From IMG/VR virus record IMGVR_UViG_2537561830_000004: a DNA stretch of 45,751 nucleotides; one strand, 5' to 3'. The translations under genes were made by a program, and so were the position numbers. The first letter of the stretch is position 1; each line of letters opens with the position of its first letter. Shown here piece by piece: positions 1,963 through 44,705 of this stretch. The notes beneath the pieces were generated by a model. The model had not been told where the DNA came from, did not search any database, and was given only the letters and a program-made list of their open reading frames with translations. Source of the DNA: a virus. Lineage: Duplodnaviria > Heunggongvirae > Uroviricota > Caudoviricetes.

Positions 1963-4434
1963 TTAAAAATCAGCCTGATTCGGAATCAGTTTTTGCCAGA
2001 TAGCTGAAACGTATTTTGCCTGGTAACGGGCGTCATCAAGTGCATTATGGCGCTCACCTTCGAATGGAATAGCCGTTCTGGCATCGAAGTCTATGGCTTT
2101 CCCCAGCTCAACGATTGTGCGTACATCGCGATCGTTGTAGTAACGCCACGGGCAGGGGATCCCCTGCCGTTCGTATGAACGGCGCAAAATCGTGTTGTCG
2201 AAGTTGGCTCCATTTCCCCAAACCTGAACAAAAAATTCACCGGAGTTTTCGTCGATAAATTCCCGCAATTGTAACAGTGCATCATCTAACGGGATTTCAT
2301 CGGTCATAATGGCAGATTGCGCTTCGCGTGATTGCTTAAGCCACCATTTAATGGTGTCCCGATCAATGACTCCGCCAGCAGTTTCCAGATCGATAGTCTT
2401 ACTAAATTCCGGTCCCATATCTCCGGTTTGCGGATCGAAAAATATTGCACCTATTGAGATAATCGGGGCATCAGGATTTTTTCCCATGGTTTCAAGGTCG
2501 ATCATTAGATGGTCACACGTCCTACTGGCGGATGTGATTTCGTGATGACTGTTCACCTTAATTGAGTGATCTGCCGTCTCGCCAGTTTCATTATCGCTAT
2601 TGTGATGCTGATTGCCGCCAGTGTTCTTCTTGTTTGGATGTTCAGCGCCTTCCATTTCCTCCGGATCATCTTCCTGAACTTCAACCTGATACTCTTCATC
2701 GAATGTTTCCTGGTATGTTGCGTCGCCCATCACCGCGCCACAATCAGGGCAGTTGCCGCCGCCGGTCTGACCGCAGGCGGTGCAGATCTTTTCCGGTTCC
2801 TGTTGCACTACTGGTTCAGGTTGTTTCGTTTCTGGCTCGTTTTGTAACGCATTTGGGCTGTTTTGTTCCGCTTTCTGGCCGTTCTGTTCCGTTTCTTGCT
2901 GGTTCTGGTTCACAGTATCGCGGGTCTGGATCCCCTTAACCCATTTCGGATCATTCGGGTCGCTAATCCCTTCAATAAATTCACCACGTGATGCAGCAAG
3001 CAACTTATCGGCGTCAGGCTGGCTGATATTGGCTGCCTGCATAATTTTGTTTACTTCGTCAGCGGTAACTTTTACCGGTTCTGGCTGTGCGGTCGTGTCA
3101 GATGCACCAGTATTTTGTTGTGAACCTGAGTATGTACTGTTTTTGCGGGCGAAATATTCTTCTTTCGTGATTTCAGTAGCCCCGGCAGCCAGCGCCTTAT
3201 CCAGACCAGAAAGTTTGTTTGCGCGACCGTATTTTTCGCCATCCTTGTCGGTGAAGAGGAAGTAGAACGGCCCCTCACGCTCTACAGATGGTTCGACTTC
3301 CACTTTGCATTCGGTTTTTTCGTTGTCCGGAATTGCCGTTTCCACTGCATCAGTTTCTGGTACTGGCGACGAGAGAGTATCAGTTGCGCTCTGATTTGTT
3401 CCTTCATCTTCAAACACGCCCTTTGTAGTCAGGTATTCAGTAATGTATTTGTTCAGTGCCACAGGATCTTTGTGAATGTCGATCGGACGTTCACGGACAA
3501 GGCCAAAAATAGTCTGGCGGTCGTAGCGAAGGGCATCAGGCTGTTTGCGCATCGATGCCGAGATACGCTTCCAGTCTTCGCGGTCGTTGTCGATAACTTC
3601 ATTTTTTGCCCAGCGATGGATGCTGCCGTCAATGTTTCCGGCATCCACATCACCAGGCCAGAGAGCGTAGGCCAGTTCGTCATCCAGTGTTTTCCATGTC
3701 TGCTTGTATTCGCGATGAGTGGCAGCAATGACCGGGTTGATTTTTCCTGTTGAATTTTCAGTGTTCTGTTGATTGGCTCTGGCGCGGGCGAGATCAACAA
3801 CAGACGTGTATTTTCCGGTTTCCTTGCGCTCACCTTCGCGACGTTTTTTCCAGATGCGCATCTCTGCCTGAATTTCGGGCCATTTGGCACCAGGCTTACA
3901 TTTATGCTTAACCCACCCGATGGCATGCAGCTTAAGCTCCGGATACATGGCGTTAACTTCTGGCATTTTCATCAACGCTTCAACGATATGTCCGTCGAAT
4001 GCTGCCATGTCTTCCTGCAACAATTCCTGCGCGCTAATCACCATATCAACGGTGATGTTTTCACATGTGTCGAACTTAACCATGACAGCGTTCTGTACTT
4101 CAGGGGCCAGCTTGTCAAAAGTGACGTTCATCGGATCTGATTCAGTCTCAACCGGGACAAAGGAAGCTGACTCCTCATCCCAGCGGTTTTCCTGCATATA
4201 TTCAGCATCCCAGGAATCGAGGGCAGGGCGGGGTATACCGGGTTTATCCTCGCAAACAAGAAATTTATAAGCGCAGTCCTGAGCAGCCGGATAATGCTCC
4301 AGGAATTGCCAGGTAAATTTGGCACGGGCGCGGCGTTCGTCGCCAGCTTCAATGGCAGTGGCTACAGCGACTGCACCTTCTTCCTTTATTGCCTGTTCGT
4401 CCGGAATAGCGGCGCAAATAAAGACTTTACTCAT
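1963..4434 (-). CDS. large early protein with C-terminal DnaQ-like (DEDDh) 3'-5' exonuclease domain, central CxxC-CxxC zinc ribbon and acidic/Gln-rich linker
   Basis: 823 aa; C-terminus has MIDLETMG and HNALDDARYQ exonuclease motifs; CTACGQTGGGNCPDCG zinc ribbon; sits in the exo/recombination position of the leftward operon. Confidence 0.7.
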   Translation of the reverse strand: MSKVFICAAIPDEQAIKEEGAVAVATAIEAGDERRARAKFTWQFLEHYPAAQDCAYKFLVCEDKPGIPRPALDSWDAEYMQENRWDEESASFVPVETESDPMNVTFDKLAPEVQNAVMVKFDTCENITVDMVISAQELLQEDMAAFDGHIVEALMKMPEVNAMYPELKLHAIGWVKHKCKPGAKWPEIQAEMRIWKKRREGERKETGKYTSVVDLARARANQQNTENSTGKINPVIAATHREYKQTWKTLDDELAYALWPGDVDAGNIDGSIHRWAKNEVIDNDREDWKRISASMRKQPDALRYDRQTIFGLVRERPIDIHKDPVALNKYITEYLTTKGVFEDEGTNQSATDTLSSPVPETDAVETAIPDNEKTECKVEVEPSVEREGPFYFLFTDKDGEKYGRANKLSGLDKALAAGATEITKEEYFARKNSTYSGSQQNTGASDTTAQPEPVKVTADEVNKIMQAANISQPDADKLLAASRGEFIEGISDPNDPKWVKGIQTRDTVNQNQQETEQNGQKAEQNSPNALQNEPETKQPEPVVQQEPEKICTACGQTGGGNCPDCGAVMGDATYQETFDEEYQVEVQEDDPEEMEGAEHPNKKNTGGNQHHNSDNETGETADHSIKVNSHHEITSASRTCDHLMIDLETMGKNPDAPIISIGAIFFDPQTGDMGPEFSKTIDLETAGGVIDRDTIKWWLKQSREAQSAIMTDEIPLDDALLQLREFIDENSGEFFVQVWGNGANFDNTILRRSYERQGIPCPWRYYNDRDVRTIVELGKAIDFDARTAIPFEGERHNALDDARYQAKYVSAIWQKLIPNQADF

Positions 4435-4514
4435 GTTGTTTTAACCTCATTACAGATTTAAGGGTGAACAAATCCCTGCCATTGCTGGCATATAAAAATG
4501 AAACCGGATATTAA

Positions 4515-4772
4515 TTACGGTGCTGTTTTAAGTCCTGCCGGGATTTCGTTATTATCCATGTGAATAACTTTATCGACCGGATAACAGTTACCGGGAATTT
4601 TCTGTTCCGCTGCGGCAGCCATGCATTCTTTCATTGAACCGTAAATGTCAATAACCATGTCAACAGGCTCACCAGTATTAAGAAAAACAGTCAGAGTGAG
4701 GGCAATAGTAGTATTCATTGCCAGTATCCTTTTTGCATCGGGCGTAAACGTGCCAGCATTGAAAGAATGCAT
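4515..4772 (-). CDS. small hypothetical early protein
   Basis: 85 aa ORF; GGGAG RBS 4 nt upstream of the ATG at 4772; hydrophobic N-proximal stretch TIALTLTVFL. Confidence 0.3.
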   Translation of the reverse strand: MHSFNAGTFTPDAKRILAMNTTIALTLTVFLNTGEPVDMVIDIYGSMKECMAAAAEQKIPGNCYPVDKVIHMDNNEIPAGLKTAP

Positions 4773-4903
4773 ATTTTATTTAATAGCTCCCGTTCGTATT
4801 TTCTCTTATTAATGGCATCTTCAGTAAATACAGGGTTACTGATTCTGACACCAATTTCAAAACAACCTTCAGACGTATTGACGTTTGGTAATAACGTTTC
4901 CAT
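4715..4903 (-). CDS. small hypothetical early protein (start chosen at internal ATG with RBS)
   Basis: ORF 4715..4999 in track; GAGGA RBS precedes the ATG at 4903 (METLLPNV...). Confidence 0.25.
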   Translation of the reverse strand: METLLPNVNTSEGCFEIGVRISNPVFTEDAINKRKYERELLNKICILSMLARLRPMQKGYWQ

Positions 4904-5092
4904 TATCGCGTCCTCAACAATGAATTTTGTGATGCGGTGCCTGGTGCCTCCAGGTGACGTTAACCAGTTAATAATTAACGCCGGATACAGAGAACCCACC
5001 CATAAGAACCAATACGGAAGTCAACTGGTCTTTTTAACTGTTCCGCGTGCGCTGAGCCGCATTCACCGCATCACAAAATTCACTTTAAAAGG

Positions 5093-5129
5093 GGCGGGTA
5101 TCATGGGAAAAACAAAACGGATACCCGCC
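5093..5129 (-). terminator. candidate leftward intrinsic terminator (10 bp perfect stem, 17 nt loop, U-rich tail on minus strand)
   Basis: GGCGGGTATC (5093-5102) pairs with GATACCCGCC (5120-5129); minus-strand downstream sequence CCUUUUAAAG. Confidence 0.3.
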
Positions 5130-5470
5130 AAAAGGTAATCAACATGGGTTGTTGCAGCGGGGTTGTCACTCAGGCGTATGGTCAACCTGACAACCCGGTG
5201 GACATTTGCGAGGAACGGAGAACCCCCGCCATACTTACCGCCGCGCCATTTCGCGGAGTGCCACAACCGGAAGCGCACGGTCGACGAAAATTTAACGACA
5301 GGCTATCTATGAACCAACAACTTCGCCGTGCGCTTTCGCGTTATGCCCTGACTTTTCAGGGAGATATCCTTTCAGTAAACTGTCAGTGCCGGATGCTCAC
5401 CCGTGTCCGGCGCACGCACTCCACCTCACCCGTGGAGAACTCCTTAATTACTAACCCTCAGGAGGATGAA

Positions 5471-5746
5471 ATGGGGTTTGATGTCAATGAAACTCTTAAC
5501 TCTCTTATACGGAAAATTAATGATTTTGATAAAACACTACAGCATGCTGCGGCGCGTAGTGATATAACATTGTTAGCAATTTCATACCTTGCATCTGCCA
5601 TGAATAAAGATGAAACGGTACGAAAGAATCTCGTTGATTATATCGACTCGCTTCAGCCGGGCACTTTCAACCCTGAGAGCTTCAATCATGAGAAAGAGCA
5701 TGTTAAATCTGTAATTAATTCTCTTGTTTTGAATCAAAAGAATTGA
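5471..5746 (+). CDS. hypothetical protein (low-GC gene convergent with leftward operon)
   Basis: AGGAGG RBS then ATG at 5471; 91 aa; about 38% GC versus about 50% backbone. Confidence 0.4.
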   Translation: MGFDVNETLNSLIRKINDFDKTLQHAAARSDITLLAISYLASAMNKDETVRKNLVDYIDSLQPGTFNPESFNHEKEHVKSVINSLVLNQKN

Positions 5747-6056
5747 TGCTTCTTGTTACGAAGCAATTTTCAAGGGGTTCTATCCGAATCCCTTTCTTTT
5801 CCATTAACAAGCCAAACCCCTTATTAATGATGTCCATTAATTCCAGGAAGTATTTTTTATGTAAATCCTGGTTATCAGAGAGTTGCTTCTCTTCGTACAG
5901 ACCGATAAAGGCACGACGCACGTTACCGGATATATTATCGATGGTTTCTTTTTCTACGGTACTCAGGTCAAGAGTCGCCAATTGAGAATGAACTATATTC
6001 GCTGCCATTTCCTGGAATGGCATTGGTAAATCTTTAAATTCCATCGTCAACCTCAT
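5715..6056 (-). CDS. hypothetical protein, second gene of leftward (PL-like) operon
   Basis: 113 aa; start ATG overlaps stop of upstream gene (TGATG coupling on minus strand); low GC. Confidence 0.4.
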   Translation of the reverse strand: MRLTMEFKDLPMPFQEMAANIVHSQLATLDLSTVEKETIDNISGNVRRAFIGLYEEKQLSDNQDLHKKYFLELMDIINKGFGLLMEKKGIRIEPLENCFVTRSINSFDSKQEN

Positions 6057-6286
6057 CAGTCAGTATTTCTGGCTAACCAGCGACGCGCGCCAGCTTCGGT
6101 TTTAAACGTTTTGCTTTTGGTATACGTCATCGCCGTGAACGTGCCGTCTTGGTTTGGAAACACGCCGTATACCAGAGACTCGTTGTTGCCAAGATCGATA
6201 GTATCCATGTTGACCTCATTTCCCCTTAACGCCGGGGTAGCGGAACAAAAACCTGCTGCATAGTTAAAGTTGAACCCTGCCGTCAT
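6056..6286 (-). CDS. hypothetical protein, first gene downstream of candidate PL promoter
   Basis: 76 aa; GAGG RBS; lies about 90 nt downstream of a predicted -35/-10 overlapped by an operator-like inverted repeat. Confidence 0.45.
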   Translation of the reverse strand: MTAGFNFNYAAGFCSATPALRGNEVNMDTIDLGNNESLVYGVFPNQDGTFTAMTYTKSKTFKTEAGARRWLARNTD

Positions 6287-6384: not shown

Positions 6385-6433
6385 AGTTTAGAAAAACGAA
6401 CTTTTCAGGTCAATGTTTTTTTATCAAAACATT
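6385..6433 (-). promoter_or_regulatory. candidate PL promoter with OL operator (inverted repeat AATGTTTT-N6-AAAACATT)
   Basis: minus strand -35 TTGACC (6408-6413), 17 bp spacer, -10 TAAACT (6385-6390); perfect 8 bp-arm inverted repeat at 6412-6433 shares the GTTTT-N6-AAAAC core with repeats in the cI-cro intergenic region. Confidence 0.4.
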
Positions 6434-6497: not shown

Positions 6498-7136
6498 TTA
6501 AATATCTTGTTGAATTTTAAAGCATACGCCCAATATGCAAGATAGATCATCCAGCATAATTGAAGGGTAGCGAGGATTCGTGGGGACTAAAAGAATATCC
6601 GGCCCTTCTATCTCCAGTTTACGAATGACAGGTGTTGTGGTCCCTTTGGGTAAGGCAAGGACAATATTTCCTGGTTGTACGGTTCGATCGGGATCAACAA
6701 AAACTGTTGAACCATTTGGGATGGAAACTCCCCCACCAGATGTTGACATACTGTCACTCTCTAGAACAACTGCAAAGGTATTGACCGGGATTTCTCCGAC
6801 AAGCTGCACACAAGAGGTTATTGAGGAATTTTTCATATAATCACTCCAGCTTGCTGCCTGCTGAAGTGATAGTAGCGGAACCGTTTTTATCGGCGGTAAA
6901 GATAGATCAAGCGAATCACCTGTATTTAACTCTCCTCCATTAAGAAGCCAATTTTCGTTTACTTTCAATATTTTTGCCAGTGAACTTATGTAACGCGAGG
7001 ACGGCGCTCCTCCACCGTTCATCCATTGACTTACGGAGCCTTTTGATGCGCCAGTGCCATTGACAAGGTCTTTGCCTTTCAGGTTTAGCGCATGCATACG
7101 TTGGGTTATGCGTTCAGATATAGTTTGCTTGCTCAT
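6498..7136 (-). CDS. cI: CI-like prophage repressor (N-terminal HTH, C-terminal S24 LexA-like autopeptidase)
   Basis: 212 aa; HTH GASKGSVSQWMNG; C-terminal LESDSM (Ser nucleophile) and VIRKL (Lys); divergent from cro-like gene. Confidence 0.85.
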   Translation of the reverse strand: MSKQTISERITQRMHALNLKGKDLVNGTGASKGSVSQWMNGGGAPSSRYISSLAKILKVNENWLLNGGELNTGDSLDLSLPPIKTVPLLSLQQAASWSDYMKNSSITSCVQLVGEIPVNTFAVVLESDSMSTSGGGVSIPNGSTVFVDPDRTVQPGNIVLALPKGTTTPVIRKLEIEGPDILLVPTNPRYPSIMLDDLSCILGVCFKIQQDI

Positions 7137-7198
7137 GTTTTGATTTTAAAACACAGATGGTTTTGTTTCTTGACTTTCTTTGGTTTTGATTATTAAAC
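7137..7198. promoter_or_regulatory. OR-like operator/promoter region (GTTTT-N6/7-AAAAC inverted repeats, PR -35 TTGACT)
   Basis: GTTTTGATTTTAAAAC at 7137-7152 and GTTTTGATTATTAAAC at 7183-7198; TTGACT at 7170-7175; between divergent cI and cro. Confidence 0.4.
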
Positions 7199-7227
7199 TT
7201 TTGACGTTCAGTTTTATGGAGCGACTC

Positions 7228-7458
7228 ATGAAAAAATCAGAAGTATTAGGCTATTTTGGCGGAGTTGTTAAAACAGCCGCAGCTCTTGGAACGTCAAAAA
7301 CCACAGTCAGCATGTGGGGGGAAGAGGTTCCGTGGAAATGGGCGTTGCTAATTCAGGCAGTCACTGCCGGGGCGCTCAAATATGAGTTACACATACCGAC
7401 GGTTGTCATTCCCGGTTCTGATCATAATCCGCCTTCTAACCAAGGGGGGGATTCATGA
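7228..7458 (+). CDS. cro: Cro-like HTH regulator (YdaS-like)
   Basis: GGAG RBS, ATG at 7228; 76 aa; HTH GGVVKTAAALGTSKTTVSMW; divergent from cI. Confidence 0.75.
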   Translation: MKKSEVLGYFGGVVKTAAALGTSKTTVSMWGEEVPWKWALLIQAVTAGALKYELHIPTVVIPGSDHNPPSNQGGDS

Positions 7459-12105: not shown

Positions 12106-12496
12106 TGCAAAAATTTCCTGTAAAAAATAATTACATACTTAAGATACTACAAAGAATAATGCGTACGCAAAATTTTTTGTTGAGTAGAATATGTTCGCGG
12201 GGTATTTTTCGTTAAGATATAATTACCATGGTAACTTTTGCGTTGGTAATGCATTATGTGGTGGAGAAAAAGAGAGAGTCTTATCTTTAAATTATCGCCA
12301 GCCTATATGACTATATGAGTAGTATTTAGATGGGAAATTGTTGAGTTATTGAAAGGAACCATAACCTTTATGTAAAATTACTGCGGGTGCTTGAGGTTAT
12401 CTGTCTCAGGCATGCCACCAAAAGGCAGATAGAGAAAAGCCCCAGTTAACGTTACGCGTCCTGCAAGACGTTTAACATTAATCTGAGGCTCAATCT

Positions 12497-12709
12497 ATGA
12501 ACGGCAAATCTAGGTTAGCCTCTTACGTGCCGAAAGGCAAGGAGAAGCAGGCTATGAAGCAACAAAAGGCGATGTTAATCGCCCTGATCGTCATCTGTTT
12601 AACCGTCATAGTGACGGCACTGGTAACGAGGAAAGACCTCTGCGAGGTACGAATCCGAACCGGCCAGACGGAGGTCGCTGTCTTCACAGCTTACGAACCT
12701 GAGGAGTAA
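12497..12709 (+). CDS. mok-like upstream reading frame of hok-family toxin locus
   Basis: 70 codon ORF running in frame into the hok coding sequence. Confidence 0.4.
   Translation: MNGKSRLASYVPKGKEKQAMKQQKAMLIALIVICLTVIVTALVTRKDLCEVRIRTGQTEVAVFTAYEPEE
12554..12709 (+). CDS. hok: Hok/Gef family type I toxin (small membrane-depolarising peptide)
   Basis: 51 aa MKQQKAMLIALIVICLTVIVTALVTRKDLCEVRIRTGQTEVAVFTAYEPEE, close to recalled Hok; AGGAG RBS. Confidence 0.8.
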   Translation: MKQQKAMLIALIVICLTVIVTALVTRKDLCEVRIRTGQTEVAVFTAYEPEE

Positions 12710-16883: not shown

Positions 16884-16959
16884 GGCCCTTTAGCTCAGTG
16901 GTGAGAGCGAGCGACTCATAATCGCCAGGTCGCTGGTTCAAATCCAGCAAGGGCCACCA
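16884..16959 (+). tRNA. ileZ: tRNA-Ile2 (anticodon CAT), ileX/ileZ-like
   Basis: cloverleaf: acceptor GGCCCTT/AAGGGCC, loop CTCATAA, T-loop GGTTCAAATCC, 3' CCA; near-identical to recalled E. coli ileX. Confidence 0.85.
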
Positions 16960-16966
16960 TCACATA

Positions 16967-17043
16967 CCGCCATTAGCTCATCAGGATAGAGCGCCAGCCT
17001 TCGAAGCTGGTTGCGCGGGGTTCGAGTCCTCGATGGCGGTCCA
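16967..17043 (+). tRNA. tRNA-Arg (anticodon TCG)
   Basis: acceptor CCGCCAT/ATGGCGG, anticodon loop CTTCGAA, T-loop GGTTCGAGTCC, CCA encoded. Confidence 0.8.
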
Positions 17044-17056
17044 TTATCTGTACCCT

Positions 17057-17133
17057 GCGTTGTTAGCTCAGCCGGACAGAGCAATTGCCTTCTAAGCAAT
17101 CGGTCACTGGTTCGAATCCAGTACAACGCGCCA
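17057..17133 (+). tRNA. tRNA-Arg (anticodon TCT), reads AGA/AGG
   Basis: acceptor GCGTTGT/ACAACGC, anticodon loop CTTCTAA, T-loop GGTTCGAATCC, CCA encoded. Confidence 0.85.
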
Positions 17134-34308: not shown

Positions 34309-34853
34309 AAACGGGGGCCGAAGCCATCCGGGCGCTGGCCACACAGCTCCCGGCGTTTCGTCAGAAACTGAATGACGGCTGGTATCAGGTGCGCATTGCC
34401 GGGCGTGATGCAGGTGAAACCGAATTATCTGCCCGTCTTAATGAGCCGCTGGCAAATGGTGCCGTGATCCATATCGTGCCGCGTCTGGCGGGAGCTAAAA
34501 GTGGCGGTGTGTTTCAGGTGGTGCTGGGGGCGGCGTTGATTGCGGTGGCATGGTGGAACCCTGTGGGCTGGCTGGGTGCCGCGGCTGTATCGGGCATGTA
34601 TGCGGCAGGGGCCAGTATGATCCTGGGCGGTGTGGCGCAGATGCTGGCACCGAAAGCCAGGACGTCCACGGCAGCCAGTACAGATAACGGCAAACAGAAC
34701 ACCTATTTTTCCTCACTGGATAACATGGTTGCTCAGGGCAATGTTTTGCCTGTTCTGTACGGTGAAATGCGTGTGGGGTCGCGGGTGGTTTCTCAGGAGA
34801 TCAGCACGGCAGACGAAGGGGACGGTGGTCAGGTTGTGGTGATTGGTCGCTGA
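34206..34853 (+). CDS. I: tail assembly protein I
   Basis: 215 aa; overlaps K 3' end; Gly/Ala-rich hydrophobic C-terminal half; start may be the ATG at 34245. Confidence 0.7.
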   Translation: MAATHTLPLASPGMARICLYGDLQRFGRRIDLRVKTGAEAIRALATQLPAFRQKLNDGWYQVRIAGRDAGETELSARLNEPLANGAVIHIVPRLAGAKSGGVFQVVLGAALIAVAWWNPVGWLGAAAVSGMYAAGASMILGGVAQMLAPKARTSTAASTDNGKQNTYFSSLDNMVAQGNVLPVLYGEMRVGSRVVSQEISTADEGDGGQVVVIGR

Positions 34854-34913
34854 TGCAAAATGTTTTATGTGAAACCGCCTCCGGGCGGTTTTGTCGTTTA
34901 TGGAGCATGACGA

Positions 34914-37900
34914 ATGGGTAAAGGCAGCAGTAAGGGGCATACCCCGCGCGAAGCGAAGGATAACCTGAAATCCACGCAGCTGCTGAGTGTGATCGATGCC
35001 ATCAGCGAAGGGCCGATTGAAGGTCCGGTGGATGGATTAAAAAGCGTGCTGCTGAACAGTACACCGGTGCTGGACAGTGAGGGGAATACCAACATCTCCG
35101 GTGTCACGGTGGTGTTCCGGGCAGGTGAGCAGGAGCAGACACCGCCGGAGGGATTTGAATCCTCCGGTTCCGAGACGGTGCTGGGTACGGAAGTGAAATA
35201 CGACACGCCGATCACCCGGACCATCACGTCTGCAAACATCGACCGTCTGCGCTTTACCTTCGGTGTGCAGGCACTGGTGGAAACCACCTCAAAGGGGGAC
35301 CGGAATCCGTCGGAAGTCCGCCTGCTGGTTCAGATCCAGCGTAATGGTGGCTGGGTGACGGAAAAAGACATCACCATTAAGGGCAAAACCACCTCGCAGT
35401 ATCTGGCCTCGGTGGTGGTGGGTAACCTGCCGCCGCGCCCGTTCAATATACGGATGCGCAGGATGACGCCGGACAGCACCACAGACCAGCTGCAGAACAA
35501 AACGCTCTGGTCGTCATACACCGAAATCATCGATGTGAAACAGTGCTACCCGAACACGGCACTGGTCGGCGTGCAGGTGGATTCGGAGCAGTTCGGCAGC
35601 CAGCAGGTGAGCCGTAATTATCATCTGCGCGGGCGCATTCTGCAGGTGCCGTCGAACTATAACCCGCAGACGCGGCAATACAGCGGTATCTGGGACGGAA
35701 CGTTTAAGCCAGCATACAGCAACAACATGGCCTGGTGTCTGTGGGATATGCTGACCCATCCGCGCTACGGCATGGGGAAACGTCTTGGTGCGGCGGATGT
35801 GGACAAATGGGCGCTGTATGTCATCGGCCAGCATTGCGATCAGTCGGTGCCGGACGGTTTTGGCGGCACGGAGCCGCGCATCACCTGTAATGCGTACCTG
35901 ACCACACAGCGCAAGGCGTGGGATGTGCTCAGTGATTTCTGCTCTGCGATGCGCTGTATGCCGGTATGGAACGGGCAGACGCTGACGTTCGTGCAGGACC
36001 GACCGTCGGATAAGGTGTGGACCTATAACCGCAGTAATGTGGTGATGCCGGATGATGGCGCGCCGTTCCGCTACAGCTTCAGCGCCCTGAAGGACCGCCA
36101 TAATGCCGTTGAGGTGAACTGGATTGACCCGAATAACGGCTGGGAGACGGCGACAGAGCTTGTGGAGGACACGCAGGCCATTGCCCGTTACGGTCGTAAC
36201 GTCACGAAGATGGATGCTTTTGGCTGTACCAGCCGGGGGCAGGCACACCGCGCCGGGCTGTGGCTGATTAAAACAGAACTGCTGGAAACGCAGACCGTGG
36301 ACTTCAGCGTGGGTGCCGAAGGGCTTCGCCATGTACCGGGCGATGTCATTGAAATCTGCGATGATGACTATGCCGGTATCCGCACCGGCGGGCGCGTGCT
36401 GGCGGTAAACAGCCAGACCCGGACGCTGACGCTCGACCGTGAAATCACGCTGCCATCTTCCGGCACCACGCTGATAAGCCTGGTTGACGGGCAGGGGAGT
36501 CCGGTCAGCGTGGAGGTCCAGTCCATCACCGACGGCGTGAAGGTGAAAGTGAGCCGGGTTCCTGACGGCGTTGCCGAGTACAGCGTGTGGGGGCTGAAGC
36601 TGCCGACGCTGCGCCAGCGCCTGTTCCGCTGTGTGAGTATCCGTGAGAACGACGACGGTACGTATGCCATCACTGCAGTGCAGCATGTACCGGAGAAAGA
36701 AGCCATCGTGGATAACGGGGCGCACTTTGACGGTAACCAGAGCGGCACGGTGAATGGTGTCACGCCGCCAGCAGTGCAGCATCTGACCGCCGAAGTCACC
36801 GCAGACAGCGGGGAATACCAGGTGCTGGTCCGCTGGGACACGCCGAAGGTGGTGAAGGGGGTGAGCTTTATGCTTCGCCTGACCGTGGCAGCGGATGACG
36901 GCAGTGAGCGGCTGGTCAGCACGGCCCGGACGACGGAAACCACTTACCGCTTCACACAACTGGCTCTGGGGAACTACAGGCTGACAGTCCGGGCAGTAAA
37001 TGCATGGGGACAGCAGGGCGATCCGGCGTCGGTATCGTTCCGGATTGCCGCACCGGCAGCGCCGTCGCGGATTGAGCTGACGCCGGGCTATTTTCAGATA
37101 ACCGCCACGCCGCATCTTGCGGTTTATGATCCGACGGTACAGTTTGAGTTCTGGTTCTCGGAAAAGCGGATTGCGGATATCAGGCAGGTTGAAACCACAG
37201 CCCGCTATCTTGGTACGGCGCTGTACTGGATAGCCGCCAGTATCAATATCAAACCGGGCCATGATTATTATTTTTACGTTCGCAGTGTGAACACCGTTGG
37301 CAAATCGGCATTCGTGGAGGCTGTCGGTCGGGCGAGCGATGATGCGGAAGGTTACCTGGATTTTTTCAAAGGAGAAATCGGGAAAACACATCTGGCCCAG
37401 GAGTTGTGGACGCAGATTGATAACGGTCAGCTTGCGCCTGACCTGGCTGAAATCAGGACATCCATTACGGATGTCAGCAATGAAATCACGCAGACCGTCA
37501 ATAAGAAACTGGAAGACCAGAGTGCGGCAATTCAGCAGATACAGAAGGTTCAGGTTGATACAAATAATAACCTGAACAGCATGTGGGCTGTGAAGCTGCA
37601 GCAGATGCAGGACGGACGCCTTTATATCGCGGGTATTGGTGCCGGTATTGAGAACACCCCTGACGGCATGCAGAGTCAGGTGCTGCTGGCGGCAGACAGG
37701 ATTGCGATGATTAATCCTGCGAATGGCAACACAAAGCCGATGTTTGTTGGGCAGGGCGATCAGATATTCATGAACGACGTGTTCCTGAAACGCCTGACGG
37801 CTCCCACCATTACCAGCGGCGGTAATCCTCCGGTATTTTCCCTGACACCGAACGGGCGGCTGACGGCGAAAAATGCCGATATCAGCGGTAACGTGAATGC

Positions 37901-44121: not shown

Positions 44122-44705
44122 TGGCATTCAGAATGAGTGAACAAGCACGGACCATAAAAATTTATAATCTGCTGGCCGGAACTAATGAATTTATTGGTGA
44201 AGGTGACGCATATATTCCGCCTCATACAGGTCTGCCAGCAAACAGTACCGATATTGCACCACCAGATATTCCTGCTGGCTTTGTGGCTGTTTTCAACAGT
44301 GATGAGGCATCGTGGCATCTCGTTGAAGACCATCGGGGTAAAACGGTTTATGACGTAGCTTCCGGCGACGCGTTATTTATTTCTGAACTCGGCTTATTAC
44401 CGGAAAATGTTACCTGGTTATCGCCGGAAGGGGAGTTTCAGAAGTGGAACGGCACAGCCTGGGTGAAGGATACGGAAGCAGAAAAACTGTTCCGGATCCG
44501 GGAGGCGGAAGAAACAAAAAACAACCTGATGCAGGTAGCCAGTGAGCATATTGCGCCGCTTCAGGATGCTGCAGATCTGGAAATTGCAACGGAGGAAGAA
44601 ACCTCATTGCTGGAAGCCTGGAAAAAGTATCGGGTGTTGCTGAACCGTGTTGATACATCAACTGCACCTGATATTGAGTGGCCTACGAACCCTGTCAGGG
44701 AGTAA
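44121..44705 (+). CDS. tfa: tail fibre assembly protein Tfa
   Basis: 194 aa; ATGGCATTC start overlapping stf stop; conserved C-terminal region repeated again at 45592-45751. Confidence 0.8.

Follow-up and report, generated by a model that had tools for sequence, protein, structure and literature searches.

A polymorphic pair of convergent genes in the dicBF early-left operon of Rac/Qin-type lambdoid prophages

In the virus record IMGVR_UViG_2537561830_000004 (Caudoviricetes) of IMG/VR, two small genes that run towards each other, here called A and B, form a low-GC cassette close to the start of the leftward early operon. The window, that is the whole stretch of 45,751 nucleotides (nt) that was analysed, is an E. 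coli lambdoid prophage of the Rac/Qin type. The region discussed here belongs to a dicBF early-left operon of Qin/Rac type, known for the cell-division inhibitor dicB, and forms the part next to the promoter. The order at this locus is repressor, promoter and operator (PL/OL), ydfA, the A/B cassette, a conserved leader, a hairpin in the slot of a small RNA (sRNA), dicB, a DUF1482 gene and an exonuclease. The original prediction had pointed to three open reading frames (ORFs) directly behind PL/OL, and all three are real: 6056..6286 and 5715..6056 on the minus strand and 5471..5746 on the plus strand, of 76, 113 and 91 amino acids (aa). It had taken the first two to be a module of unassignable function heading the operon, upon which the third converges. 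That grouping does not hold, as the first gene is an ordinary ydfA (DUF1391; Pfam PF07151, E 1.2e-28; phrog_751, E 1.6e-45) at a position matching ydfA and ydaF of K-12, for which PGAP, in its annotation of identical DNA, prefers a shorter 50-aa form starting at 6208. The second gene matched no family of assigned function and belongs with the convergent gene. The natural two-gene unit is a 109-aa form of this second gene together with the convergent 91-aa gene, and not the 76-aa and 113-aa genes.

Gene A encodes a protein of 109 aa at 5715..6044 on the minus strand. The mechanical ORF (5715..6056) is four codons longer, and its 113-aa product had been supposed to start at a TGATG overlap with the preceding gene. 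This start was rejected, since it is not the conserved one and relatives use Met5. In all relatives the start is ATGGAATTT (Met5, position 6044) with GAGG ahead of it, and it is kept after either upstream gene, ydfA or ydfC, while in one locus (L014) the upstream ATG of the TGATG type is closed by a stop. Both the PHROG profiles (phrog_6937, E 1.5e-65) and PGAP also place the start at 6044. The protein is made up of an N-terminal domain (N-domain; residues 1-55, 5880-6044, GC content 0.42) and a variable C-terminal part (CT; 5715-5879, GC 0.33). The N-domain is common to phrog_1363, 2151, 9419 and 33007, and an exhaustive search of 1.84 billion proteins found it in 36 representative clusters, always at the N-terminus; the proteins measure some 30-210 aa, and among the shortest many are evidently fragments. 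There was a single weak internal match, in a protein of 2,494 aa. An AF2 model of the N-domain is a helical hairpin with a pLDDT of about 80. Past this domain the sequence of A switches between unrelated CTs, which are open extensions of 50-150 codons and not short rewritten tails. The antiterminator N of lambda and its like are small basic proteins with an arginine-rich RNA-binding motif, encoded by the first gene behind PL. The genes of the window do not answer to this description: the first PL gene is the DUF1391 gene, and A is acidic (pI 5.0, with 4.6 for the N-domain) and has no Pfam match. Of the suggestion that these genes occupy the slot of N or of rexAB/sieB, the part that stands is the position of sieB, which abuts N in lambda and overlaps ydaF in Rac; the part concerning an N-type antiterminator does not.

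Gene B (orf91; type B1) encodes 91 aa at 5471..5746 on the plus strand, convergent with A, and the 3' ends of the two genes overlap by 32 nt (5715..5746), in keeping with the overlap of about 30 nt first noticed. The strong ribosome binding site seen at the outset is the Shine-Dalgarno (SD) sequence AGGAGG at 5460..5465, 5 nt before the ATG at 5471, which was also placed by junction alignments. The low GC content was likewise confirmed, each cassette gene having 0.37 and the window as a whole 0.51. Two alleles of B1 differ with a dS of 0.40 and a dN of 0.12, and in the B1 frame dN/dS is 0.28-0.30, the lowest of the six frames (others 0.43-1.24). As this is also the sole stop-free frame, and as one B1 allele carries an in-frame deletion of 15 nt, orf91 is a real coding gene. 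Longer forms of orf91 (200 aa in the mechanical ORF, 145 aa in PGAP) were rejected because their upstream extensions run antisense to a conserved non-coding leader that phages without B have as well; the sequence varies only from the ATG at 5471 onwards. Past the stop codon of B, the plus strand folds into two hairpins (5747-5765 and 5772-5794, in the region 5747..5803; dG -18.2 kcal/mol, z -3.98), the second of which is followed by UUUCUUUUCC, with a run of U to 5803. By consensus and folding this is terminator-like on the plus strand only, and both hairpins lie antisense inside codons of A. No such terminator-like site was found after the B genes of cassette types 3 and 4, described below. 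The moron-like anatomy proposed for the convergent gene is upheld in its main features, a lone plus-strand gene with a strong SD and terminator-like hairpins. Relatives of B1 are few, with only 11 clusters in a database of 5.8 billion proteins, all from E. coli where the source names an organism, and none in 50,697 phage records. The protein has no match in Pfam, NCBIfam or PADLOC and an insignificant one in PHROGs (E 0.078). It is soluble, with a maximum 19-residue Kyte-Doolittle mean of 1.09 and no hydrophobic segment detected.

The cassette measures 609 bp (5457-6065) and stands in place of the ydfB-ydfC segment of the well-studied dicBF operon, which in K-12 Qin has the layout ydfA-ydfB-ydfC-leader/dicF-dicB-ydfD (PMC5069750, PMC10448788). 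From 4400 to 5456 the window shares 86% DNA identity overall with phage Tritos, a figure that rises to about 95% for the greater part of the leader. Homology to Tritos is lost at 6066 and picked up again at 5456, the window having no ydfB/ydfC segment. Compared with Tritos and K-12 Qin, the cassette is an insertion bordered by 5456 and 6066, and K-12 has neither A nor B. In most relatives that bear a cassette, ydfB-ydfC is retained and the cassette follows ydfC, ahead of the dicF leader; the junction of ydfA and A in the window is a derived arrangement that is found elsewhere too.

The slot is a true variability hotspot, as had been supposed, with at least nine unrelated families of B in one place. 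Seven types of A/B pair were read directly and two further B families (63 and 57 aa) came from a survey of IMG/VR. The directly read pairs are A109/106 with B1 of 91 aa (type 1, that of the window), A124 with B2 of 73 aa (type 2), A133 with B3 of 92 aa (type 3), A135 with B4 of 77 aa (type 4), A122 with B5 of 100 aa (type 5), A208 with B6 of 69 aa (type 6) and A179 with B7 of 80 aa (type 7). A is nearly always faced by a small gene on the opposite strand, the 3' ends abutting or overlapping by 0-77 nt. The B proteins are small and soluble and, a possible distant link between B1 and B3 excepted, mutually unrelated; their genes are mostly of low GC content (0.35-0.42). Every type of B starts directly behind one conserved platform that ends in the SD, with variable sequence from the ATG onwards. 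In most types this platform reads ...CCTTAATTACCAACCCTCAGGAGGGTGAA-ATG and in others it takes the variant form ...CTCCAT...ATGGAGGATAAA-ATG. A comparison of the B1 of the window with B3 by BLASTP gave no match, while the other B1 allele matched B3 with E 6e-5 in a comparison of seven sequences and hhalign aligned the two at 31% identity over 78 columns (E 0.0011, probability 21%). Homology of B1 and B3 is therefore possible; no similarity was detectable between the CTs of types 1 and 3. Loci that carry A124 and no B were considered as clean deletions, and this was rejected, since simple excision of B2 does not account for the junction.

Four of these B types are common among the 5,426 complete genomes of E. 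coli that were searched, with B4 in 650, B1 in 198, B3 in 127 and B2 in 88, carriers including O157:H7. Summed per type this amounts to some 1,060, about a fifth of the genomes. These counts bear on the most sceptical account of the pair, in which A and B would be ordinary filler of an early operon and the 91-aa ORF would be unexpressed or functionless. Such an account could draw on the lack of annotation or family homology for A and B, on the cryptic state of many of the carrier prophages and on the occasional frameshifts in B genes. It is made highly improbable by the retention of four B types in so many genomes, by the coding signature of orf91 and by a pairing of A with B that is conserved across genera.

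Evidence for this pairing came from several directions. In 232 IMG/VR locus records, which are phylogenetically redundant and include some contigs that were fetched twice, each cluster of CTs has its dominant B: A0 with B1 in 64, A135 with B4 in 56, A133 with B3 in 49 and A212 with B6 in nine. A first scan of IMG/VR yielded 56 loci with A106/A109, and B1 is present in every one. When the search was made from the side of B, the usual A adjoined close relatives of B2, B3 and B4 in virtually every locus with room for it. More distant relatives were found in 14 phage loci, where a B4-like gene (60-69% identity) is convergent with its neighbour with an overlap of 22-23 nt, as in type 4, and the facing protein shows homology to the CT of A135 over its last 70 or so residues. 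Towards the N-terminus these CT4 proteins differ, and they lack the N-domain known from E. coli. Within type 4 pairs the B proteins share about 60% identity and the CTs about 40%. In a Salmonella Rac-like prophage a standalone CT3 protein of 71 aa (60% identity to residues 69-131 of A133, E 3e-24) lies directly behind the repressor and faces a B3-like gene with an overlap of 41 nt, as in type 3. Since the CT3/B3 and CT4/B4 pairs persist without the N-domain, it is a CT with its convergent B that lasts as a unit in evolution. In one of the distant CT4/B4 phages (L321, 921-1100, minus strand) a 59-aa protein judged by eye to be CsrA-like, that is resembling the carbon-storage regulator, adjoins the pair.

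The two partners are not equally dependable companions. A without B is common (17 and nine loci in two clusters, in addition to Stx2 phages), and no B without its partner was found among the loci examined, which is the asymmetry to be expected if B needs A. In several genomes B3 or B4 is frameshifted or altered at its C-terminus while the facing A is intact (L387-L391, L331 and L333; P0172, P0177 and P0180), which suggests that B is dispensable or is sometimes selected against.

Not all of this need mean that A and B act together. B might instead be an independent moron, a lysogenic-conversion or defence gene in a recombination-prone spot, with A unrelated to it and the 3' end of A rewritten with each new B. 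This account fits the finding that the same A core (residues 1-93) occurs with B1, with the unrelated B2 or with no B, and it has a parallel in sieB, which in lambda and in Rac faces unrelated neighbours (N and ydaF). The low GC content, the SD of its own and the terminator-like hairpins of B are those of a moron, and relatives have a second variable spot nearby with RelE or HigB modules. It is doubtful all the same, for CT3 and B3, and CT4 and B4, have stayed together with identical overlaps across phages that otherwise differ around them; the CTs, being long open extensions, look like real coding sequence; and B occurred in no other genomic context among the loci examined.

The explanation that is favoured here is that B is a prophage-side exclusion factor and A its cognate neutraliser, expressed early. 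According to this proposal, B would be expressed from a promoter of its own while PL is repressed; in the lysogen it would be a small factor that excludes related phages on entry or makes their infection abortive. A would be made early from PL, whether by a prophage upon induction or by an incoming phage that has the gene, and its CT would bind and neutralise the cognate B, such that a phage is immune to its own exclusion factor. Transcription from PL running antisense through B, along with an anti-SD stem in the leader of B, could provide an additional shut-off at the level of RNA. Exchange of cassettes by recombination in the conserved flanks (at one end the leader and SD, at the other ydfC and the N-domain of A) could generate new exclusion specificities. 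The proposal is preferred because it accommodates the anatomy of the locus, the conserved pairing, the orphan asymmetry and the precedent of sieB, and it is given a probability of about one in three. Independent expression of B is favoured by its lone position on the plus strand of a minus-strand operon, its strong SD, the terminator-like hairpin behind its stop and its structured leader. The region 5385..5470 is structured on the plus strand (dG -32.8, z -3.99), with hairpins at 5386-5413 and 5419-5437 and a stem that sequesters the SD, in which 5440-5444 pairs with 5460-5464 (CUCCU with AGGAG). The SD stem is unbroken in all 19 leader variants, with one pair changed from U-A to A-U in five of them, and G.U pairs in the first leader hairpin favour the plus strand. 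The stem and its compensatory pair lend modest support to a B mRNA that is regulated. In a bolder form of the proposal, the CT of A and its B may represent an undescribed family of polymorphic two-protein conflict modules of phages that set apart 'exclusion groups' among Rac/Qin-like lambdoid phages, a reading that is put forward tentatively and with the odds against it.

A number of observations weigh against an exclusion factor and its neutraliser. The argument from pairing is weakest for type 1, the type of the window itself. A109 equals A124 up to about residue 93, and the partner of A124 is the unrelated B2, where it has a B at all, so that only the last 16 or so residues of A, mostly inside the overlap, are specific to B1; the case for a partnership of this A with B1 is indirect. 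Linkage alone yields some co-occurrence of CT and B, and the IMG/VR loci are phylogenetically redundant. Being the only plus-strand gene in a run of minus-strand genes, B needs either its own promoter or long read-through, and a consensus scan of the window gave no promoter site of at least 9/12 close upstream of it. The nearest candidate above threshold, TTGACG-17-CATTAT at 4878-4906, is rated weak and lies about 565 nt upstream; a further weak candidate (TTTTCA-17-TAAACT, 5353-5381, 8/12) was read by eye, and weak promoter-like sites are present upstream of the B4-like genes in distant phages. The leader ahead of B is equally conserved in relatives without B, such as Tritos, and its conservation need not serve B. 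A leader shared with Rac sieB was looked for and rejected, the upstream regions not being homologous.

Family and fold searches add to this side of the balance. Pfam, NCBIfam, PADLOC and PHROGs were searched with A and four of its long variants, and with B1 and six further types of B, and the matches were only to PHROGs with no assigned function. With respect to defence and anti-defence families, the PADLOC hits were insignificant and there was no match in Pfam or NCBIfam. A profile search of the sequences in the Protein Data Bank (PDB) gave nothing below E 0.19. The AF2 models of the full proteins are helical, their confidence being low with a pLDDT of 66.2 for A and 64.6 for B, and Foldseek found no match for them in the PDB below E = 1; no inference was drawn from the fold. 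A profile and structure search of the three proteins had been proposed as a check at the outset and has paid off in part, identifying the 76-aa protein as DUF1391, linking A only to PHROGs with no assigned function and returning nothing significant for B. Homology to standard early proteins, which would have undone the idea of a special module, is confined to the YdfA of the 76-aa gene and was found for neither A nor B.

The same pairing could be read in reverse, with A (through its CT) as a harmful effector that acts alongside dicBF and B as a constitutive antidote that covers for a leaky PL. In the operons of pore-forming colicins an inducible toxin gene is followed by an immunity gene on the opposite strand and then by a lysis gene. 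The layout here would mirror this arrangement, with a DUF1482 gene of the ydfD type downstream. The CT-B pairs are conserved and co-vary, their geometry is convergent with overlapping ends, and the repressor is a LexA-like S24 protein. The operon also encodes the toxic dicB, and the ydfD position is annotated as 'lysis protein' in K-12 (PMC10448788). The roles are nevertheless unlikely to be distributed in this way. A is often found without B and no B without A was found among the loci examined, which is the wrong direction of orphanhood for a toxin. In systems of toxin and antidote, the member left on its own is as a rule the antidote. Pfam shows no known toxin domain in A, which also lacks a membrane segment, and the B of type 4 is more conserved than its CT (about 60% vs about 40%), unlike typical immunity proteins, which evolve fast. 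The orphan pattern is not decisive, since loss of B could be tolerated if A were made only in a doomed cell.

A further possibility is that the device works at the level of RNA, with transcription of B and its antisense RNAs curbing read-through from PL to dicF, dicB and the lysis genes, which are toxic, and with the B protein as a secondary matter. Such an RNA brake would fit the convergent overlap in every cassette type, the layered control of the toxic dicBF operon, which includes processing by RNase III (PMC10448788), and the antisense control exerted at this position by sas on sieB in P22 (PMC12197685). It is quite improbable as the main purpose of the cassette, given the purifying selection on the B protein and the nine unrelated and always open B frames behind a very strong conserved SD, which argue that translation matters. 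Moreover, the terminator-like hairpin on the plus strand would confine any antisense RNA to the last third of A, and relatives without B manage the same operon.

The position of the cassette directly behind PL/OL, as stated in the original prediction, is reasonable in that a promoter-like site overlaps a palindrome that recurs twice to the right. A sigma-70 promoter resembling PL/dicBp (TTGACC-17-TAAACT, 6385..6413, minus strand) was assigned by a consensus match alone, and the OL-like palindrome ATGTTTTTTTATCAAAACAT (ATGTTTT...AAAACAT, 6413-6432), found by repeat search, has related copies on the OR side at 7135-7153 and 7183-7201. Promoter and palindrome overlap and both lie between the repressor and the first leftward ORF. 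The repressor is of the CI/LexA type, with helix-turn-helix (HTH) and peptidase S24 domains by Pfam (6498..7136, minus strand). It is followed by a P22-Cro-like regulator (7228..7458, plus strand; PF14549, E 1.6e-15) and a YdaT-like gene, identified by Pfam, is a third regulator close to the cassette region. Relatives have a second site of variation between the repressor and ydfA, occupied in L009 (4431-4904) by a RelE/ParE toxin and a 62-aa gene and in L015 (1399-2063) by a HigB toxin and an HTH gene. A further mosaic point is seen in L007 (1585-2439) and L428 (1095-1943), where dicB and the leader are separated by an inserted Rha-family regulator, in L428 one with Phage_pRha and Phage_ASH domains.

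On the other side of the cassette, the conserved non-coding dicBF leader (the spacer between ydfC and dicF; 5140..5456, minus strand) has 86-95% identity to Tritos and other loci. This leader of about 330 nt, with several hairpins, is 90-95% conserved with or without the cassette (L001, L004, L010, L012, L014, L015 and L425), and at one of its hairpins the sequence is wholly different between variants (CTCCAC...GTGGAG as against ACCACACG...CGTGTGGT) and the same place still folds. The homologous leader of Tritos carries DicF. In the window, alignment to the annotated DicF of Tritos shows that the body of DicF is replaced by a different terminator-like hairpin with a U-run (GGCGGGUAUC...GAUACCCGCC, 5087..5129, minus strand, dG -17.2), and no Rfam match to DicF was obtained in the window even at E <= 10. 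This hairpin may be another sRNA allele with other targets; the variant also occurs in L015, and in K-12 Rac the equivalent slot holds the sRNA KilS. The spacer between the sRNA slot and dicB (4926-5080, minus strand) has a sub-threshold Rfam match to the Salmonella sRNA STnc100 (34 bits vs a gathering threshold of 47, E 3.4e-5). Beyond it lie dicB (62 aa, 4715..4903, minus strand; PF05358, E 3.1e-37), the DUF1482 gene in the ydfD position (67 aa, 4515..4718, minus strand; PF07358, E 9.7e-20; phrog_1092) and, in the same direction, an exonuclease of 823 aa. Elsewhere in the window, matches at the Rfam gathering level comprise a sok antitoxin RNA of the hok/sok type, three tRNA genes in a row and an IS009 RNA element (12385-12559, 16884-17130 and 44464-44662, all on the plus strand).

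The dicBF operon and ydfA are already known; what appears to be new is the polymorphic convergent pair. No description of it was found in the literature searched, and the annotation of the pair goes no further than hypothetical proteins, and this in an early-left operon of the dicBF/Rac kind that has been studied for decades. If B does exclude and A does neutralise, they would constitute a compact new class of genes for competition between phages, which would explain the variability of the spot. If instead they are toxin and antidote, a convergent protein-protein arrangement would be added to the toxin-antidote field. Natural controls exist for either case in the relatives that have only A and in those that have neither gene.

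Among known systems, the closest setting is that of K-12 Qin, with a like architecture of a repressor/Cro-like switch, ydfA in first place, a long conserved leader, an sRNA slot, dicB and a DUF1482 gene. The Qin switch is dicA/dicC, whereas the repressor of the window is a CI/LexA-type S24 protein and not DicA, and unlike Qin the window lacks ydfB and ydfC, has the A/B cassette instead and has another hairpin in place of DicF. The cassette resembles morons in being inserted between genes that are adjacent in relatives, in its deviant GC content and opposite orientation and in having its own SD and a terminator-like hairpin; genes antisense to lytic genes have been described as characteristic of the accessory loci of prophages (PMC7067206). 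It differs from morons in that no promoter was found for B at the threshold of the scan, in consisting of two facing genes, one of them in a lytic operon, and in that its start is fixed at a conserved SD common to unrelated genes. Membership of the type II toxin-antitoxin systems was not borne out, the genes being convergent with no match to a family in Pfam, NCBIfam or PADLOC and none to a fold.

In polymorphic toxin-immunity cassettes such as CdiA-CT/CdiI and Rhs-CT with its immunity protein, a conserved N-terminal part is joined to interchangeable CTs, each with its own partner gene. The A/B slot is alike in having a conserved N-terminal part, a swappable CT and partner, and conserved flanks that permit exchange, a likeness that is weaker for type 1. 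The differences are that the partner is convergent, that the proteins are soluble and of 80-210 aa, that there is no delivery domain and no match to a known toxin fold, and that the orphan pattern suggests that the CT is the antidote-like member. The resemblance is architectural only. BstA, in turn, is a large protein whose cognate self-immunity element, aba, is a DNA site. A/B is similar to BstA/aba in its position by the repressor and early-left region and in the proposed logic of self-immunity, by which a factor expressed from the prophage would stop the lytic growth of its own phage too if no linked element neutralised it; it differs in that there is no sequence relationship and in that a defence role for A/B is only putative. 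The bstA gene is mentioned in PMC7067206.

A precedent for the position and for the proposed logic of an exclusion factor with its own neutraliser is sieB. In lambda sieB (34482..35036, plus strand) abuts N (35037..35438, minus strand), and in Rac it shares 4 nt with the DUF1391 gene ydaF, and the sRNA KilS and the division inhibitor kilR follow. Like B, both are read against PL and have their 3' end at a promoter-proximal PL gene. Membership of B in the SieB family was not supported by any match in Pfam, NCBIfam or PADLOC; B is an unrelated and soluble protein of 91 aa, in contrast to annotated sieB products of 162 aa in Rac and 184 aa in lambda. In P22 an antisense RNA, sas, switches the translation of sieB, and Esc allows the phage to bypass its own exclusion (PMC12197685, PMC7067206). 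The A/B pair would differ from this arrangement in that the proposed escape factor is encoded by a separate, convergent gene, whereas Esc is an internal product of the same gene.

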